A stretch of 36,423 nt of DNA from contig ONVG01000001.1 in the NCBI GenBank assembly GCA_900321195.1, positions 1 to 36,423 on the forward strand, read 5' to 3'. A program made the translations under genes and the position numbers. Below the pieces are notes generated by a model, which worked only from the letters and a program-made list of their open reading frames with translations, did not search any database and was not told the DNA's origin. Shown piece after piece: positions 945 to 9,157 of this stretch. Source of the stretch: an uncultured Eubacteriales bacterium (lineage in GTDB: Bacteria; Bacillota; Clostridia; Oscillospirales; Acutalibacteraceae). Position 1 is the first letter of the stretch, and every line of letters starts with the position of its first letter.

Positions 945-1141
945 AAATGCCGCCCACTGAAACAGATGCTGCTGTTCAATTGCTTCGTGCTGTATAAGAA
1001 CGCCTTTATTCTTTCCTCTGCCGCTGTGAATTGCAGATCGTCAATAAAATCGCATAGCTGCGCATCTGTCATTTTCCTGACCTTTACCGCTGTGTCATGC
1101 TGCCTTTTCTCAAGAGGTGTCTTCCTGTAATTCTTCTTCAT
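788..1141 (-). CDS. hypothetical ORF; only about the first 45 codons look genuine, possibly joined to the VRR-NUC gene by a -1 frame change
   Basis: ORF overlaps the VRR-NUC gene by 157 nt. Its C-terminal part is Cys/Arg-rich, shadow-like sequence. Confidence 0.3.
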   Translation of the reverse strand: MKKNYRKTPLEKRQHDTAVKVRKMTDAQLCDFIDDLQFTAAEERIKAFLYSTKQLNSSICFSGRHLCPESTKSLNICTIFRTAEAATRKKQSTSKGRESEQECLILICRSQEKVITA

Positions 1142-2048
1142 TCGTTTTTCTCCTTCCGATAAAACTGTCTATGTATTCGTCATCATCAAACCAATCGTTC
1201 ATATCCCATTCGGACTCCTGGGAGTTTCTGTACATAACCAGTGATACATACCACTGCTGATTGAACCGATTTTGCCCGGTCACTATTTTCACGACCCTGT
1301 ATCCCCGATACCGCCGTTCCCAGTACTCCCTGTCTTCCTGATGAACAGTACCCATCAGCTCAACTCTGCGGCTTGTCAGCTTACCGTCTTTTATTTTTTC
1401 TTCCGGCTTTCTGAGATTACGTGAACAAACAAATTTTTTTGCCCCGGGCGGTGCGTAGGAATGATCCGCCTGCTTGACAAGGTAAGCGCCTATTTTTTCA
1501 GGTCCCCAGTAGTCAGGATCATACCTGTCAGCTTTGCGGGATATGCCCTTATTCCAGATACTTCTGTAATCTCTCCAGTCTCTTTCATATCCGCATCCGG
1601 ACAATATCAGATGGAAATGATATCCGCCCCGTTTTTTCGCTTCGATCGTGTAGATATATTTCAGCGGTTCTTCTGCCTTTCTGAGCTGTGCCCTGAGTTC
1701 CTTGTTTTTGGGTTCGGCTTTCAGCTTTGATCTCAGCTCTTCCGCTTTCCTTTCACGGAACGTCTTTATCCGCCGAAGGTAGTTAACTATATCCCGCTTG
1801 GCCTGCTCATACTCATCCGGTCTCTTATTCTCCGAATATGTCAGATGAATGATTACATCGCTTTCATCAAAATTTGCATTGAGCAGTCTGACCGCTCTCT
1901 TTTGCGCTTGCTTTTGATTGTATTTTGCCTGCTGCTCTGATGATACCTTCGACTTCGGACCTCTGAATATGTGCTTGCCGTCCCGTGTCACCGGATAGAT
2001 ATTCACTTCCAGCAGCTTCCCGGATTTTATCCTTTTCTCTCTTATCAT
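1110..2048 (-). CDS. HUH-superfamily Rep-like (rolling-circle type) replication initiator candidate
   Basis: Ordered motifs IIHLTYS (motif 1-like), YHFHLILS (HUH) and GAYLVKQ (Tyr motif), located in the early region downstream of the Cro-like gene. Confidence 0.5.
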   Translation of the reverse strand: MIREKRIKSGKLLEVNIYPVTRDGKHIFRGPKSKVSSEQQAKYNQKQAQKRAVRLLNANFDESDVIIHLTYSENKRPDEYEQAKRDIVNYLRRIKTFRERKAEELRSKLKAEPKNKELRAQLRKAEEPLKYIYTIEAKKRGGYHFHLILSGCGYERDWRDYRSIWNKGISRKADRYDPDYWGPEKIGAYLVKQADHSYAPPGAKKFVCSRNLRKPEEKIKDGKLTSRRVELMGTVHQEDREYWERRYRGYRVVKIVTGQNRFNQQWYVSLVMYRNSQESEWDMNDWFDDDEYIDSFIGRRKTNEEELQEDTS

Positions 2049-3193: not shown

Positions 3194-3323
3194 TTAGTTC
3201 ACCTCTTTTTCTCCTGCATACCGGGCAGATGTAGTACTCGTACTTATCAAACTTGCTGACGTTCCACTCTGTCCCACAGTATATGCAGGTTTTGTATACC
3301 GCGCCCTCTTTCCGCTGTTTCAC
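3180..3323 (-). CDS. small zinc-ribbon protein (47 aa, below the ORF-track cutoff)
   Basis: GTG start overlaps the Cro-like stop (GTGA). Translation VKQRKEGAVYKTCIYCGTEWNVSKFDKYEYYICPVCRRKRGELNAKS has CxxC...CxxC. It fills an otherwise empty gap. Confidence 0.4.
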   Translation of the reverse strand: MKQRKEGAVYKTCIYCGTEWNVSKFDKYEYYICPVCRRKRGELNAKS

Positions 3324-3529
3324 TGCTGTACTCTCTCCCCGTAGACTAACTGGTCGACTGTCGTGCTCAGAGCCCTCGCTATCTTCACAGCGTTCTCAAG
3401 GTTCGGCACTTTCAGCCCTGTTTCAAACATGCTTATCGCCTGCTGTGTTATCTGGGCTTCTTCTGCAAGTTCTGTCTGGCTCATGTTTGCCTTTTCTCTG
3501 TAATGCCTGATATTTTCTCCCAATGCCAT
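3320..3529 (-). CDS. Cro-like XRE-family HTH regulator
   Basis: MSQTELAEEAQITQQAISMFETG is a classic XRE HTH. Gene is divergent from the CI-like gene. RBS AAGGGGGGTG. Confidence 0.8.
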   Translation of the reverse strand: MALGENIRHYREKANMSQTELAEEAQITQQAISMFETGLKVPNLENAVKIARALSTTVDQLVYGERVQQ

Positions 3530-3567
3530 ATTTTCACCCCCCTTTTTTATTTTTACATTTTTGGTTG

Positions 3568-3596
3568 TTGACTTTGTGAATAAAAAATAATATACT
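3568..3596 (+). promoter_or_regulatory. candidate rightward (repressor-side) promoter
   Basis: TTGACT, 17-nt spacer, TATACT. Confidence 0.4.
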
Positions 3597-3653
3597 TAAA
3601 GTAAGTATATATATTTATTTGGGTTGTTACATTCTCGTTACAACCTTAACTGT

Positions 3654-3682
3654 ATTATAATTTACATTTATGTAGAAATCAA
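3654..3682 (-). promoter_or_regulatory. candidate early (Cro-side) promoter
   Basis: Minus strand reads TTGATT, 17-nt spacer, TATAAT. The palindrome TACATTTATGTA sits in the spacer. Confidence 0.45.
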
Positions 3683-3746
3683 GTAAATTTTCTAAGTTCT
3701 TGTAGATTTGTAATGATTCCACAATTTCAGCTCTACATTTTTGTAG
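3663..3746. promoter_or_regulatory. operator-like TGTAGA sites in the switch region
   Basis: Palindromes TACATTTATGTA (3663-3674) and CTACATTTTTGTAG (3733-3746), plus TGTAGAT at 3701. Confidence 0.45.
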
Positions 3747-3769
3747 AAAATATTGAAAGGAGTGATTAT

Positions 3770-4144
3770 ATGTTATTTTGGGAACGATTTTATAGTCTGT
3801 GTCTGTCAGTTAATAAAAAGCCTAATACAATTTGCAATGAATTAGGCTTCTCTTCAGCAACATCAACTCATTGGAAAAACGGAACAATGCCAAAAGGAGA
3901 TGCGTTGTTGTCACTTGCTGACTACTTTGACTGCTCGGTAGATTATCTGCTCGGACGAGAGGAAACAAAAAAAGCCGCTGTTCTATCAGTTGAGAGCAGC
4001 GACACTAAAAAAGAGCAGCTCATAAAAAACTATGAACTGCTCAATGATGAAGGGCAGGAAGACCTTCTGGACTATTCGGAGATGCTTGCAAGCAATCCGA
4101 GAAAAATAAAAGAAAGTAATAATTCTGTTCAAATGAATGCGTAA
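3770..4144 (+). CDS. CI-like XRE-family repressor (start refined)
   Basis: RBS GAAAGGAG 8 nt ahead of the ATG at 3770. HTH segment PNTICNELGFSSATSTHWKNG. Divergent from the Cro-like gene. Confidence 0.75.
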   Translation: MLFWERFYSLCLSVNKKPNTICNELGFSSATSTHWKNGTMPKGDALLSLADYFDCSVDYLLGREETKKAAVLSVESSDTKKEQLIKNYELLNDEGQEDLLDYSEMLASNPRKIKESNNSVQMNA

Positions 4145-4163
4145 TTAAAGAAAGGATGATAAA

Positions 4164-5276
4164 ATGGATCCGATAGTAATTTTCTTTGTCATTATAATTG
4201 TCGTTTCAGTAATAATTTCAATACTATATTACAGTGCAATTAATAATAACAATAATTCTCCGCCATCACAACCCAAATACACATCCTCTAAACCTCAATA
4301 TACACCTGACTATGAACATGAACTTGAATACAAAAAAAATAAAAGCGTTGATATATCGTACAATACAACACACAATATGCCAAGTACCTACATAATTGTT
4401 GACGTCCAGACTACAGGCTTGGATTATTTCAAGGATAGTATTCTTGAGATCACTGCTGAAAGATATGACGAAGGAATAAAACATGATGACTTCCATAGCT
4501 ATTGTAAATATACTAAACACATCCCCGATGAAGCGTTTGCGGTTAATAATATTTTTTCATCAGATGTAAACAACGCTCCTTCTTTACGTATTGTACTTAA
4601 CGAATTTCTGAACTACATTAAAGATTATCCTCTTTTAACATACAATGCAGAATTTGAAATGAGTTTTTTACAGTATAATTGTATCACTAAACTTAAAAAA
4701 CGTATAAACAACAATGTTATTAATGGACTTGAATTGAGTAGAGAAAACCTGCCCGATCTTCATGATCACAAGCTGTCTACTATTCAAAAATATTTCAACG
4801 TAGTAAAAGGTCCTAAACACTCATATAACAATTGTAAAACAATCAATCACTTGTACCACTATTGCATACAAAGAGAAGAATCAATCAGTAAATATGGAGT
4901 AGCATTTTCATCAGATCCTTGCGAGCTGAACGATTTAGAAGTTAATTATCTTAATGAATTTGTAAAAATCTGTGTCAGAAATAAAATCAAGAAATCCTCA
5001 CTTTCAATCAGAAAGAGTGGAAAATATCTTATTGTTATGCGCAATCAAATACCACTTATTAAGTTTAAGCTTAACGGAAAATTAAACTATTTTTTGATAG
5101 ATATACCTTATAATAAATTTATATCAGAATGTCATACGGAAATAGAATGTGCTTCCGGAAGCAGTAACGAAATAGGAATGACAAGAGTATTATCAACATC
5201 TCCGGAGCAAATGAACGAGTTTAAAGAATACATTTTTACATCAAAAACAAGAGTCTGGTCAACTCAATCATTTTGA
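4164..5276 (+). CDS. membrane-anchored DnaQ/DEDD-exonuclease-fold protein with degenerate catalytic motifs plus an unknown C-terminal domain
   Basis: N-terminal TM helix IVIFFVIIIVVSVIISILYY. Exo I-like VDVQTTGL (E to Q), Exo II-like YNAEFEMSFL (D to E), Exo III-like HSYNNC (D lost). Confidence 0.6.
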   Translation: MDPIVIFFVIIIVVSVIISILYYSAINNNNNSPPSQPKYTSSKPQYTPDYEHELEYKKNKSVDISYNTTHNMPSTYIIVDVQTTGLDYFKDSILEITAERYDEGIKHDDFHSYCKYTKHIPDEAFAVNNIFSSDVNNAPSLRIVLNEFLNYIKDYPLLTYNAEFEMSFLQYNCITKLKKRINNNVINGLELSRENLPDLHDHKLSTIQKYFNVVKGPKHSYNNCKTINHLYHYCIQREESISKYGVAFSSDPCELNDLEVNYLNEFVKICVRNKIKKSSLSIRKSGKYLIVMRNQIPLIKFKLNGKLNYFLIDIPYNKFISECHTEIECASGSSNEIGMTRVLSTSPEQMNEFKEYIFTSKTRVWSTQSF

Positions 5277-5283
5277 ATAATAT

Positions 5284-6087
5284 ATGAAAGAAAGAATTTT
5301 TGAAATAGTAAGTTCGCCTGACGAACCAAGCAAGCTCAGTAAAGCATTTGACATTTTTATAATCTGCCTGATAGTTTTGAATGTTATAACAGTAATAGCA
5401 GACACATTCAGTCTTCCTGAGTGGGCAAGAAACATCCTCTGGTGGATAGAAGTAGTATCTGTTGTGATCTTTACACTGGAGTACCTGCTGCGTATCTATA
5501 CAGCAGACCTTATGTTTCCCGAAATGAAGCCGTTCAGAGCAAGACTCAGATACATACGATCCTTTATGGCAGTGATAGATTTGCTTGCAATTCTGCCGTT
5601 TTATGTTCCATACATAATTCCTATTGATCTGCGTGTGCTGCGTATGCTGCGGATAATAAGACTGCTGAGAATATTCAAGATAAACCGCTATACAACGGCA
5701 TTATCAACAATTGCAGATGTATTCAAACGCAAAAGACACGAGCTTTTATCATCAATTGCAGTTGTATCAATGCTGATGATAATTGCCGCTGTCCTTATGT
5801 ACAATATAGAGAACGAAGCACAGCCGGAAGCCTTTGAGAATGCCTTTGCCGCTTTATGGTGGGCAGTAGCTACTCTGACTACTGTAGGATATGGAGATGT
5901 TTATCCGGTTACTGTTCTCGGGAAAATTCTGAGTGCAATTATTGCCCTTCTCGGTATCGGACTGGTAGCAGTACCGACAGGTATTATATCATCGGGTTTT
6001 GTTGAGAGCATGGAAGAAAAGCATAAAGCTCAGGAAGAACATGATAAAAAATGTTTTTGTCCCTATTGTGGGAAGAAATTGAAATAA
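5284..6087 (+). CDS. 6TM voltage-sensor-type potassium channel
   Basis: Selectivity filter TTVGYGD. S4-like segment RVLRMLRIIRLLRIFK with a basic residue every third position. Six hydrophobic segments. C-terminal CFCPYCG. Confidence 0.85.
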   Translation: MKERIFEIVSSPDEPSKLSKAFDIFIICLIVLNVITVIADTFSLPEWARNILWWIEVVSVVIFTLEYLLRIYTADLMFPEMKPFRARLRYIRSFMAVIDLLAILPFYVPYIIPIDLRVLRMLRIIRLLRIFKINRYTTALSTIADVFKRKRHELLSSIAVVSMLMIIAAVLMYNIENEAQPEAFENAFAALWWAVATLTTVGYGDVYPVTVLGKILSAIIALLGIGLVAVPTGIISSGFVESMEEKHKAQEEHDKKCFCPYCGKKLK

Positions 6088-6127
6088 AAAATCGCCCCCG
6101 CCGGCACTGGTAATACCGACAGGGGCA

Positions 6128-6187
6128 GGAGCTGTGTTATATGTCAAAAAACAACTCAATATGATATTGTTATTATAACACAGCTCC
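6128..6187. repeat. perfect 14-bp inverted repeat between the channel gene and int
   Basis: GGAGCTGTGTTATA (6128-6141) and TATAACACAGCTCC (6174-6187), separated by a 32-nt loop. Confidence 0.7.
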
Positions 6188-6215
6188 GATAAAAACGCAA
6201 TAAGGAGTGATATTG

Positions 6216-7256
6216 ATGAAAGCTAAAAAATTACCATCCGGATCATGGAATGTGCAGGTATTTGTCGGCTATGATCAGAATGGAAAGAAAATACGCAAGA
6301 GCTTTACTGCGCCGACAAAGAAAGAAGCAGAATATCTTGCTGCAAGCTTTAAAGCTCACCATCAGGAAGTCACCAGAGACAGTTCTGCTATGACTCTGAG
6401 TGAAGCTATAGATAAGTACATTGAATTTAAGGGGGCTACTCTTTCCCCTTCAACTATCAGGGGTTACAATTATATTAAGAAAAAAGCATTTCCATCAATA
6501 ATGAACATAAAAATCAATAAGCTAACGGCACACAAGGTACAAGCAGCAGTTAACAAAGAAATTGGAACAAAAAAACCTAAAACAATAAAAAACGAGATTG
6601 TTCTGATACGTACTGTTGTAAAAATGTATGCTCCATCGGTCAATCTGTCTGATATTTCTTTACCGCAGCCAAAGAAATATATAGCTCAGGAGTTATCTTT
6701 GGAGCAGGTCAAACTGTTATTATCTGAGATAGTAAAAGATGAACAAGCTATTCCGTTATTGATAGCTATGTGTCTGGGGCTGAGAATTTCCGAAATAACA
6801 GCACTCAGATGGAGTGATTATGATACAGATAATATGGTTCTTTCTGTAGATAAGGCGATAGTCAGAGATATCACAAATGCAATGGTTCAAAAAGGAACCA
6901 AAACAGAGGAAAGCGAACGTACTATAGTTGTTCCGCCTTTTCTCCATAAACTAATGGTTAGAAACGCTCAAAAACCATCTGATCATATAATGACCAAATC
7001 TCAGTCGGCTGTAAGAGAACATCTTAAAAAAATATGTGATAATGTCGGTATTCCACATCTGAGAGTACATGATCTCAGACACATTAACGCATCTGTTATG
7101 CTTTATCTGAACATACCGGCAAAATATGCAATGGAACGTGGAGGATGGAGCGATATAAAAACAATGGACAAAATATATCAGTTCACATTTAAGGATCAGA
7201 AAAGAGTTGTCGATGATCGGATAAACGACTTTTTTTCTCAGGCTGTTGACCTGTGA
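6216..7256 (+). CDS. int: tyrosine integrase
   Basis: LRISEITALRWSD (Arg), HDLRHINASV (HxxR), GGWSDIKTMDKIYQF (Tyr). N-terminal arm-binding-like segment KLPSGSWNVQVFVGYD. AAGGAG RBS ahead of the ATG at 6216. Confidence 0.9.
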   Translation: MKAKKLPSGSWNVQVFVGYDQNGKKIRKSFTAPTKKEAEYLAASFKAHHQEVTRDSSAMTLSEAIDKYIEFKGATLSPSTIRGYNYIKKKAFPSIMNIKINKLTAHKVQAAVNKEIGTKKPKTIKNEIVLIRTVVKMYAPSVNLSDISLPQPKKYIAQELSLEQVKLLLSEIVKDEQAIPLLIAMCLGLRISEITALRWSDYDTDNMVLSVDKAIVRDITNAMVQKGTKTEESERTIVVPPFLHKLMVRNAQKPSDHIMTKSQSAVREHLKKICDNVGIPHLRVHDLRHINASVMLYLNIPAKYAMERGGWSDIKTMDKIYQFTFKDQKRVVDDRINDFFSQAVDL

Positions 7257-7339
7257 TTCCATATGGAATTTCATATGGAATAGCGTTAAAAAATATGAAA
7301 TTTTAATCCTAAAAGTGATAATATAATTACATATCTGAT

Positions 7340-7396
7340 ACTATAAAAATATATAAACCCCGCATAAACACTGAACTTTCAGCATCTATGCGGGGT
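7340..7396 (-). terminator. rho-independent terminator downstream of the tRNA fragment
   Basis: 10-bp stem ACCCCGCATA/TATGCGGGGT, followed on the minus strand by TTTATATATTTTT. Confidence 0.6.
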
Positions 7397-7405
7397 CTTT
7401 CTGAG

Positions 7406-7431
7406 TGCCGGTGGTGGGGCTCGAACCCACC
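7406..7431 (-). other. tRNA 3'-end fragment (T-arm plus 3' acceptor strand), candidate att core
   Basis: Minus strand reads GGTGGGTTCGAGCCCCACCACCGGCA: T-stem GTGGG/CCCAC, T-loop TTCGAGC, acceptor strand CACCGGC, discriminator A. No D-arm or anticodon arm upstream. Confidence 0.6.
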
Positions 7432-7496
7432 AAAAAACTTTTAAAAGCCTATTATTTCAAGTGTTTTAGAATTATCATATGGAATTTCATTTGGAA

Positions 7497-8708
7497 TTAC
7501 TTCTTCCCTTCCACAATAAACGCATCCATGAAGCCTGCCTTTTTGACTGCTTCAAGATAAGCGTCCGCATTCTTTTTCTCTGCGAATGCCCCGACCTGCA
7601 CACGGTAGATCGTGTTTGAAACCGACTGTGTTGTTGTCTTTGAAGCCGTCGAAGCTGCCCAGTTCGGACGGAAGAAGCTGTGTACACTGCCGTCACTAAG
7701 ATACCTCGTGCACCTTGCAAAAGTTGAAGTTCCCGCCCAGTTGCTGCCGCTGCCCTGAACATTGCCTTCAAGCGTAGTGATGGTGTTTCCGCTGACTTTT
7801 TCAACAATGCCGATGTGAGAGCATGAATACTTGTCCTGAGTCGGGCATCCGTCATACTTGAAGAAAATCAGGTCACCCGGCTGCGGAGTCTTACTTCCTT
7901 TAGCAAACCATGTTCCCGTCTTGCCGTCACCATAGCGGGCAGGGTAAGGCGCGACCCCATACACTTCCGGCTGATACTTCGGAATGAATCCGCAGTCCTT
8001 CATGATCGCAGACACGGCATAGCAGCACCAGTCATAAACTGCGCCAAGTTTAAGCTTAGTCTGGCAAACATAATAGCCATTCTTTCCGATATAGGAACGA
8101 GCCGTTTCAAGGAATTTATCCCTGTCGCTGACTGTAGTTGCTGCCTTTGCAGTACTTGAAGTTGTGCTTGCAGACGTGCCGGGTGCTTTGTATGTGACCC
8201 CGAAAGCCTGACACACACCTTTTGCAAAGGCTTCGCCGACTGTTGACGTATTTTCTATTAACCACTTTGCAATTGTGGGATTGTCATGGAAGTCAACCTC
8301 AGTGTATACAGCAATTGCATTTGTGTTACAAAGTTCGGATAAATCGGGGTATTCTCTGACACCATACTCCGTTTTACCGGGCGTAACTGCCTGAACTGCC
8401 TTGTATATAGGGTTTGCATACTTCATGTTTTCAGAAGCCTTGCTGTAAACCATGCACATTGTACCCGAACCGCCGCCGGCGTTTGTATGTATCGGCATAT
8501 GCAGATCAGAACCCCAATTGTTAGATTCTGCAATAGACTTGCTCATATCCTGCCCCTTTGGAGCTTTTTTGACGGTAAATCCGCAGCGTTCAAGGGCTGT
8601 TTTTGCTGCGTCTGCAATTCTGTTGCACTGCTCCATTTCACTTGTGTTGCCGTAAGCGTACTTGTTTCCGCTTTGATTTGACGGTGATAAATAAATTTTT
8701 TTGGACAT
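7497..8708 (-). CDS. three-module endolysin: N-acetylmuramoyl-L-alanine amidase, NlpC/P60-CHAP-like peptidase, SPOR domain
   Basis: KIYLSPSNQ...HMPIHTNAGGGSGT (amidase); DWCCYAVS...SCSHIGIV (Cys-His peptidase); IYRVQVGAFAEKKNADAYL (SPOR). Start refined to the ATG at 8708, which has an AAAGGA RBS. Confidence 0.8.
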   Translation of the reverse strand: MSKKIYLSPSNQSGNKYAYGNTSEMEQCNRIADAAKTALERCGFTVKKAPKGQDMSKSIAESNNWGSDLHMPIHTNAGGGSGTMCMVYSKASENMKYANPIYKAVQAVTPGKTEYGVREYPDLSELCNTNAIAVYTEVDFHDNPTIAKWLIENTSTVGEAFAKGVCQAFGVTYKAPGTSASTTSSTAKAATTVSDRDKFLETARSYIGKNGYYVCQTKLKLGAVYDWCCYAVSAIMKDCGFIPKYQPEVYGVAPYPARYGDGKTGTWFAKGSKTPQPGDLIFFKYDGCPTQDKYSCSHIGIVEKVSGNTITTLEGNVQGSGSNWAGTSTFARCTRYLSDGSVHSFFRPNWAASTASKTTTQSVSNTIYRVQVGAFAEKKNADAYLEAVKKAGFMDAFIVEGKK

Positions 8709-8713
8709 ATTGA

Positions 8714-9157
8714 TCAATCCTTTCTTTCTGCTGATGTTTTCAGCCTGCCTATAATTTTCTTCAAAAACTCAGGTATCGGCACACCAAGCCGCCCCAGATT
8801 TTCAAGTATGGATATCATCTCATTTATGATGAGCCAGACCGCAACGAGCAGCCCGAACCACATATTGTAACCGACTTCGATATTAGCTGCCACAATTCCA
8901 CTATAGATAAGATAATCCACTCCCATAGCAACAGCAATTAGTGCCATATACCCGACTTTTTTCACAATGCCCTTTGCGCCGACCTTGCTTGACAGCGTTC
9001 CCTCGCTCCATGCCGCCGACATACCGCTGAGGTAGTCAATTATCATCATTACCATAAGTACAATGATAGGCACAGCAAGCGCACCTAAATATGACGCAAA
9101 AGCCGCCAGCGCAGCGGAGATAATTGCCTGAATCCCAATGCTTTCAACCTTATCCAT
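8714..9157 (-). CDS. holin
   Basis: 147-aa protein with several TM segments immediately upstream of the endolysin. IDYLSG...KGIVKKVGY resembles TcdE/phage holin_4-type holins. Confidence 0.7.
   Translation of the reverse strand: MDKVESIGIQAIISAALAAFASYLGALAVPIIVLMVMMIIDYLSGMSAAWSEGTLSSKVGAKGIVKKVGYMALIAVAMGVDYLIYSGIVAANIEVGYNMWFGLLVAVWLIINEMISILENLGRLGVPIPEFLKKIIGRLKTSAERKD

Follow-up and report, generated by a model that had tools for sequence, protein, structure and literature searches.

The gene pairs rexAB of phage lambda and gp30/gp31 of mycobacteriophage Sbash are located downstream of the repressor gene and are expressed in the lysogen, one product being proposed to be an ion-conducting membrane protein (PMC6426596). 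RexA and Sbash gp30 carry the domain DUF4747, and RexB and gp31 are small proteins with four transmembrane (TM) segments (4TM; PMC6426596). Here we describe a locus of comparable position in a 36,423-nt stretch of DNA from an uncultured Eubacteriales bacterium (GenBank assembly GCA_900321195.1, contig ONVG01000001.1; the whole stretch is called the window below), which is a temperate-phage genome of ~36 kb. Just downstream of the repressor gene, as in lambda cI-rexA-rexB and in Sbash, it contains two cargo genes, the first for a 370-aa membrane-anchored protein with a DnaQ fold (the exonuclease-like protein) and the second for a voltage-gated (Kv-type) K+ channel with six TM segments (6TM). 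According to an earlier note on this DNA, the repressor is followed by two genes for membrane cargo in an immunity-region operon, in the position of lambda rexAB, and this description was borne out. The note had also interpreted the two products as a Rex-like pair of sensor and effector, and in this respect our analysis led to a different conclusion. We found that each of the two families recurrently and independently occupies the slot between repressor and integrase of temperate phages, and that the two genes are very probably independent passengers and not a matched sensor/effector pair.

Membership of the locus in the RexAB group was considered and rejected. Unlike RexAB and Sbash gp30/gp31, the window combines a DnaQ-fold protein with a 6TM Kv channel, and the two do not form an obligate pair. 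DUF4747 was not found in the 370-aa protein, for which the Pfam scan gave RNase_T only, and the downstream product is a 6TM Ion_trans channel, not a RexB-like small 4TM protein. Among the PADLOC models no Rex-named one matched at E<=1; the matches were to DEDDh, PDC-S48 and DRT models. Joint inheritance of both genes, as expected of a RexAB-type pair, was not observed either (1/81 viral channel loci, 0/160 exonuclease-like loci, 3/10 gene orders among close relatives).

These counts come from profile-guided scans of IMG/VR, which yielded 81 channel loci and 80 exonuclease-like loci, and from a further 80 genomic exonuclease-like loci retrieved in a genome scan with an 11-sequence alignment; all open reading frames (ORFs) of the loci were searched with hidden Markov models (HMMs). 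A single-protein viral scan with the channel alone returned only 2 loci. As a control, 80 lysogeny modules anchored on the serine recombinase of the sister phage L009 were used, a scan with the integrase of the window having given only 1 locus. Within 6 kb of the channel gene, the exonuclease-like gene was absent from 80 of the 81 viral loci, with L014 as the sole exception, and a channel was present in none of the 80 viral and 80 genomic exonuclease-like loci. In the control modules, each of the two genes was detected once (1/80 with the exonuclease-like gene, 1/80 with the channel). Lack of co-occurrence of the two genes in other genomes had been named in the earlier note as an outcome that would refute the pair, and the pairing is indeed largely missing elsewhere. 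In L014, and likewise in L183, L184 and L187, the gene order is reversed, with the channel preceding a DEDDh gene, and the DEDDh partner belongs to a different subtype, which is catalytically intact, has two TM segments and lacks the C-terminal domain of the exonuclease-like protein. The two adjoining genes of the window have also diverged to different extents: in comparison to L013, the exonuclease-like protein is 72% identical (synonymous divergence dS 2.0) and the channel 90% identical (dS 0.96).

We also considered that, at least in the phage clade of the window, a Rex-like pair could operate in which the inactive exonuclease-like protein acts as a membrane sensor of incoming nucleic acid and controls the gating of the K+ channel, resulting in abortive infection. 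The gap of 7 nt and the tight coupling in the repressor operon would suit such a mechanism, as would the fact that both products are membrane proteins, the vicinity of a TM-anchored DEDDh gene to the channel in two orders and subtypes, and the presence of the exonuclease-like gene in 3 of 10 gene orders of the close clade vs. 1 of 80 controls. We nevertheless regard it as improbable, since each gene is far more common without the other, the sister phages retain the channel with unrelated neighbours or none, and the divergence of the adjoining genes is unequal. Further, the catalytically intact partners found in L011 and L014 show that an inactive sensor is not a common feature, the hallmarks of RexA and RexB (DUF4747 and the small 4TM protein) are absent, and the voltage sensor of the channel would already provide a gating input.

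The comparison of gene orders around channels 75-100% identical to that of the window, in which 10 orders were counted (the nine listed ones are given here), illustrates how the surroundings of the channel change. The order repressor, inactive exonuclease-like gene, channel and tyrosine integrase is common to the window, L004, L005 and L178, and in L013 and L001 the inactive exonuclease-like gene, channel and tyrosine integrase follow a helix-turn-helix (HTH) gene and an M78 gene. In L011, the repressor is followed by an intact TM-DEDDh gene (401 aa), a gene for a 74-aa protein, the channel and a serine recombinase. A serine recombinase also closes the modules of L009 (HTH and M78 genes, a 74-aa tail-anchored protein, channel), of L010 and L012 (HTH and M78 genes, lipoprotein, channel, HicA-HicB-HicB) and of L353 (HTH gene, 215-aa TM protein, channel). 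Modules ending in a tyrosine integrase are found in L355 (genes for 132 aa and 80 aa, channel, 332-aa TM protein), in L357 (S24-type CI gene and a channel with overlapping start) and in L179, where only the channel lies between the HTH gene and the integrase. Altogether, the exonuclease-like gene is present in 3 of the 10 gene orders of channels at least 75% identical to that of the window, and in sister phages with channels 75-90% identical its place is empty or is taken by a lipoprotein gene or by genes of other membrane proteins. What stays constant is the channel, the exonuclease-like gene being one among several interchangeable neighbours.

Some of these neighbours deserve a separate description. 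The conserved 74-aa protein of L009 and L011 (4780-5004) is basic and tail-anchored, and its gene, which has no counterpart in the window, overlaps the start codon of the channel by 4 nt, which suggests translational coupling. In L355, a mini-island of 3.7 kb (4333-8076) is inserted between host ABC-transporter and two-component genes. It comprises a repressor-like 132-aa gene, the genes of an 80-aa Zn-ribbon TM protein, the channel and a 332-aa TM protein, and a tyrosine integrase, and may represent a prophage remnant in which the channel was retained. The TM-anchored neighbours of the channel in L353 (4351-4998) and L355 (5864-6862) are otherwise unlike each other, but have a C-terminal domain of ~58 aa in common (57% identity) with the pattern H-x-C ... 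C-x-x-C, for which no Pfam match is on record.

The preference for the slot was analyzed at 59 non-redundant channel loci, of which the two nearest genes on each side were classified. Downstream of the channel, 19 tyrosine integrases and 9 serine recombinases were found, and upstream of it 35 HTH_3 proteins, 7 ImmA-type M78 and 6 S24 repressor-type peptidases and one Ltp lipoprotein. RNase_T appeared only once among all these neighbours, and this was the exonuclease-like gene of the window itself. At 41 non-redundant exonuclease-like loci, 37 of the neighbours were HTH_3 and 10 were M78 proteins, and a further 20 were integrases or recombinases; a TM segment was predicted in 22 of the 41. Both genes of the window have the marks of lysogeny-module cargo: they are located between repressor and integrase, have the same orientation as these, and vary among related phages.

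In Firmicutes phages, the slot between repressor and integrase is known to harbour superinfection exclusion (Sie) genes, such as sie2009 of lactococcal phages and ltp of the Streptococcus thermophilus phage TP-J34. The cargo of the window resembles Sie2009 and Ltp in its genomic slot and in the membrane association of its products, and the likeness to Ltp extends to a predicted lipoprotein in the same position in sister phages (L010) and to the Ltp-family lipoprotein at one other channel locus. However, Sie2009 and Ltp are small membrane proteins or lipoproteins which block DNA injection, whereas the window encodes a predicted ion channel and a protein with a nuclease fold.

The 267-aa product of the second cargo gene scored far above the Pfam cutoffs for Ion_trans (E 1.5e-41, 142.7 bits vs. 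25) and Ion_trans_2 (61.5 bits vs. 22.5), and the closest solved structures are those of Kv7 (E ~1e-31) and Kv2. Its S4 segment shows the charge series RxxRxxRxxRxxRxxKxxR (R117, R120, R123, R126, R129, K132 and R135), and these charges, the counter-charge positions F63, E66 and D99 in S2/S3 and the selectivity filter TTVGYGD (residues 199-205) are invariant in 27 homologs. With a profile score above threshold, the S4 charge spacing with its counter-charges and the T-V-G-Y-G filter, the protein is a complete Kv-type channel with predicted K+ selectivity and voltage dependence, as the earlier note had maintained. A full S1-S4 sensor, the TTVGYGD filter and the 6TM topology are common to this protein and to other prokaryotic and eukaryotic 6TM Kv channels (Kv7/KCNQ, Kv2), from which it differs by its length of only 267 aa, the lack of a T1 or RCK domain and its CxCPYCG end. 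For the MVP and Kch equivalogs of NCBIfam, its score stays under the cutoff. A ratio of nonsynonymous to synonymous substitution rates (dN/dS) of 0.05-0.07 indicates strong purifying selection on the channel gene. The channels of chloroviruses (Kcv) are likewise virus-encoded K+ channels; however, Kcv is a minimal pore with two TM segments which a eukaryotic virus brings along in its virion and which functions during entry, whereas the channel of the window has 6TM topology and a voltage sensor and is encoded in a phage lysogeny module.

The CxCPYCG motif at the C-terminus of the channel (6046-6087, residues 255-267) does not vary among 27 homologs from phages and hosts. To our knowledge, no role of this motif has been described; it could form a metal-binding knuckle between channel subunits. 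In L001 (3364-3754), the channel gene contains a TAA, which corresponds to an exchange of E to stop after NIEN just upstream of the pore helix. It represents a recent mutation or a sequencing error and was not used as evidence. We dropped the assumption that the L001 channel is a frameshifted pseudogene, since there is a single in-frame TAA and the flanking sequence is conserved.

The channel has more than 8000 relatives, and its gene is common on Oscillospiraceae chromosomes. Widespread chromosomal channels are 62-70% identical to it, and copies at 64-70% identity are located on large contigs among housekeeping genes (such as ECF transporter, PcrA/UvrD and AP endonuclease). To judge from this comparison, the phage channel was copied from a host chromosomal gene and has changed little since, every functional residue of the host copies having been kept. 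Homology searches with both proteins had been proposed in the earlier note, and the identification of a DnaQ fold and of a Kv channel stood up to them; what did not agree with its interpretation was that the channel turned out to be a near-unchanged host gene. Another K+ transport gene in a prophage is trkG of Escherichia coli, which is located in the rac prophage and acts in K+ uptake. In an Oenococcus sicerae prophage, a KQT-like channel is 88-89% identical to chromosomal ones of the host (PMC9867325), and the genes listed as enriched in gut phages of spore-formers include an orthologue group of K+ channels (PMC10294663). Earlier mentions of phage K+ channels were made in passing (PMC9867325; PMC10294663; GenBank annotations). 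The channel of the window is similar to trkG and to the Oenococcus channel, which is also Kv-type, in being a K+ transport gene copied from a host into a prophage; however, trkG is tied to K+ uptake and the Oenococcus channel was mentioned only in passing, whereas the arrangement in the window recurs over dozens of phage lineages. In the literature searched, we found no functional study of phage K+ channels, no description of the recurrent arrangement of repressor, channel and integrase, and nothing relevant on prophage K+ channels in exclusion or defence or on TM-DEDDh defence proteins.

The host origin of the channel brings up another explanation, according to which the cargo genes are independent but the channel is a host-fitness gene that adjusts K+ uptake or release, membrane potential, or signalling of the sporulation or biofilm type in the lysogen. 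Its close similarity to widespread chromosomal channels with all functional residues kept is in line with this, and so are the precedents of trkG, of the Oenococcus prophage and of the gut phages of spore-formers. None of the PADLOC defence models matched the channel, so that no known defence family accounts for it, which also suits a role in host physiology. The slot and its other occupants (HicAB, lipoproteins, membrane-tethered nucleases) rather suggest exclusion or defence cargo, and little would be gained from a similar second copy where the host already owns the gene. We consider a host-fitness role possible, though somewhat less likely than protection of the lysogen.

The explanation that we prefer is that of two independently acquired and independently working membrane cargo genes which are expressed in the lysogen, the channel serving to protect it. 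The locus is the lysogeny module of a temperate phage from gut Clostridia of the Oscillospiraceae type, and the repressor promoter would drive both cargo genes in the lysogen. The exonuclease-like protein would be tethered to the membrane by a single pass, where it would probably bind the ends of nucleic acids and not break them down. The host-derived channel would act alone, with its own S1-S4 segments as the sensor and its own pore as the effector: depolarisation of the cell by an incoming phage would evoke an extra, voltage-triggered K+ conductance, and this would lead to superinfection exclusion or abortive infection (Abi). We favour protection of the lysogen because the slot is the classic Sie/Abi slot and because in sister phages this place is held by HicAB, lipoproteins and membrane-tethered nucleases. 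Since a physiological role of the channel fits nearly as well, we assign to this full explanation a probability of only about 0.45.

Several points weigh against it. A near-unchanged housekeeping channel of the host suits a role in host physiology as well as one in defence. A channel opened by depolarisation would tend to repolarise the cell, and the direction of the effect on the infecting phage is uncertain. With respect to the independence of the two genes, an exonuclease-like gene adjoins the channel in two unrelated arrangements, upstream of it in the window and in L011, and as a TM-DEDDh gene downstream of it in L014, L183, L184 and L187. There is a weak enrichment over the controls, which is not significant when all non-redundant loci are considered (Fisher p 0.12-0.21); the value of p 0.004 in the close clade is nominal only, the phages there not being independent.

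Going one step further, one could speculate that the phage Kv channel is an exclusion or abortive-infection device made of one protein, in which the sensor detects the depolarisation caused by DNA injection and the pore answers with a K+ flux, and with which membrane-tethered DEDDh or pseudo-DEDDh neighbours might cooperate in some lineages. Such a voltage-sensing device, if true, would account for the recurrence of the channel beside repressors, but we consider this specific proposal rather unlikely.

Alternatively, the channel could serve the phage's own cycle, by timing holin triggering via the membrane potential or by coupling induction or DNA entry to the energetic state of the cell. Holin triggering depends on the membrane potential, and on the circular genome the channel lies near the lysis cassette with its amidase and holin genes (7497-9157). 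However, it has the orientation of repressor and integrase, all lytic genes being oriented the other way, integration at attP beside the integrase would part it from the lysis genes, and across phages it tracks repressor and integrase, not holins. We therefore regard this as the least probable of the explanations considered here.

The other cargo product, the exonuclease-like protein, matched RNase_T with an E value of 1.4e-16 in the Pfam scan. In its AlphaFold2 (AF2) model (predicted local distance difference test, pLDDT, 88.9), a TM helix (residues 3-29) is followed by a disordered linker, the DnaQ fold (75-241) and an extra domain (257-362), and Foldseek aligned the model with DnaQ, PolC-exo and DinG-exo structures at E values of 3e-12 to 1e-9. 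The DnaQ/RNase T fold is present, but not the full set of acidic D, E, D and D residues and the motif III histidine of DEDDh exonucleases: four of the five positions are changed (E to Q82, D to E165, D to N223, and an H-to-D spacing shifted by one residue in motif III), and only D80 is clearly kept. The description of the 370-aa protein in the earlier note, a TM helix plus a DnaQ fold with degraded motifs, was accurate. The DnaQ fold is common to DnaQ/DEDDh exonucleases such as PRK06807, phrog_14632, gp78 of the Clostridium tetani phage phiCT9441A and Cas2-DEDDh, from which the protein of the window differs by the replacement of the catalytic E, D and D and by its N-terminal membrane anchor. 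Metal-dependent catalysis has probably been lost. The charge distribution suggests that the DnaQ-fold domain and the C-terminal domain face the cytoplasm.

A word-indexed protein search revealed only 3 close relatives of this protein, all in sister phages, and an exhaustive HMMER search defined a family with a variable N-terminus (TM segment in 20/31 members, CxxC ribbon in 6/31), a DEDDh domain and a C-terminal domain that is conserved. This family is equivalent to phrog_14632 and related to PRK06807, and with both of these the protein of the window has the C-terminal domain in common (E 3.5e-36 for its match to phrog_14632). The match to NCBIfam NF005289 (PRK06807; E 1.4e-42, residues 69-359) reaches 146 bits vs. 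a curated cutoff of 335, and the protein is a relative of NF005289 and not an equivalog. All four acidic DEDD residues are kept in 25 of the 31 family members, the degenerate catalytic state being limited to a small subclade (the window, P0002, P0003, P0124 and P0133). The degraded motifs of the candidate sensor in the earlier note are thus a feature of this subclade and not of the mostly intact family. The dN/dS of the exonuclease-like gene is 0.08-0.14, corresponding to strong purifying selection, and since the degenerate subclade is under such selection, the protein should have a function, though probably not that of a nuclease. No sequence match to its C-terminal domain was found in Pfam or PDB, and the fold matches of this domain are weak (YjbR at E 0.045 and TM-score ~0.5, DUF1801, and the C-terminal domain of T4 MotA); a DNA-binding double-wing fold is a lead only.

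A full-length, catalytically intact relative without a clear TM segment is present in C. tetani phages (phiCT9441A, L006, 5839-6981). This protein (gp78) is encoded at the attR end of the prophage, after the lysis genes and thus in a different cargo slot, with no channel nearby.

The features of the lysogeny region of the window are listed in Table 1. Nearly all genes of the phage are located on the minus strand, and the only plus-strand block consists of repressor, exonuclease-like gene, channel and tyrosine integrase. The repressor and the exonuclease-like gene are separated by 19 nt and the latter and the channel by 7 nt, so that the three closely spaced, co-oriented genes reported in the earlier note were confirmed as ORFs.

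Table 1. Features in and around the lysogeny module of the window.
Feature	Position	Strand	Evidence
Cro-like HTH gene, 69 aa, divergent from repressor	3320-3529	-	HTH_3 E 1.6e-16
Divergent promoter/operator region, 240 nt, 24% GC	3530-3769		Palindromes and promoter-like sites
CI-like repressor, 124 aa, without peptidase domain	3770-4144	+	phrog_8 6e-13, weak HTH matches
Membrane-anchored DnaQ-fold protein, 370 aa, degenerate DEDDh motifs, C-terminal domain of ~120 aa	4164-5276	+	RNase_T, AF2 model
Predicted 6TM voltage-sensor K+ channel, 267 aa, TTVGYGD filter, full S4, CxCPYCG end	5284-6087	+	Ion_trans
Two adjoining hairpins	6093-6127 (GC-rich), 6128-6187 (long, AT-rich)		Fold z-score -3.9
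Tyrosine integrase	6216-7256	+	Phage_integrase 1e-13, phrog_1 4e-56
Probable attP region	7257-7496		15-nt repeat, tRNA-like stretch, minus-strand terminator

The Cro-like gene, the repressor and the operator-like region between them constitute a standard immunity switch. A repeat search revealed three palindromes resembling TCTACA-N4-TGTAGA in this region (3661-3678, 3691-3706 and 3732-3749), which also contains promoter-like sites in both directions (3568-3596 on the plus strand, 3682-3654 on the minus strand). The repressor start is backed by a strong AGGAG 8 nt upstream, and an alternative longer ORF from 3713 would run over one of the operator palindromes. The HTH matches of the repressor other than phrog_8 were below cutoff (Pfam HTH_26 at E 0.0025, DicA, RstR).

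With respect to base composition, the claim that the cargo is far more AT-rich than the rest of the phage (GC content 0.453) applies to the exonuclease-like gene (0.307) but not to the channel (0.399), which is close to the repressor (0.387) and the integrase (0.371). The hairpin after the third gene had been proposed as the operon terminator. This was rejected, since the T-run of the GC-rich hairpin is on the minus strand; the second hairpin, with a 14-bp stem, directly follows and also lacks a plus-strand U-run. In fact, no plus-strand terminator was predicted anywhere in 3200-7600, and therefore the integrase may be co-transcribed with the repressor operon. The GC-rich hairpin faces as a minus-strand terminator, yet no minus-strand gene runs into it; it may be a remnant that came in with the host-derived channel gene.

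Beside the integrase, an exact 15-nt repeat, CATATGGAATTTCAT, is present at 7260 and 7476 (0.12 expected by chance), and a minus-strand terminator (7355-7398) lies in the same region, which is the probable attP. Between the repeat copies, a stretch at ~7405-7430 resembles a tRNA 3' end when read by eye only; an intact tRNA gene was not found in the window. A megablast search with positions 3500-7400 gave no match among GenBank phages. Outside this region, a 312-aa ORF (1110-2048, minus strand) is the counterpart of a REP_ORF2-G2P gene annotated in the sister contigs L002 and L004. REP_ORF2-G2P is a rolling-circle-type replication initiator, which is unusual in a tailed temperate phage of this size.

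The locus described here is important in several respects. It cautions that adjacency within a cargo hotspot is poor evidence of a two-gene system. The slot has a second recurrent and uncharacterised cargo in the membrane-tethered DnaQ-fold family, which is mostly intact and appears disabled in the window. At the level of sequence, the stand-alone K+ channel that recurs beside phage repressors represents a modestly novel lead, and the arrangement of repressor, channel and integrase is simple and present in dozens of non-redundant phage lineages and hence directly testable. If the channel acts in lysogens, a textbook protein of excitable membranes would be tied to the conflict between phage and host, or to a host physiology driven by prophages, in Clostridia that are abundant in the gut.

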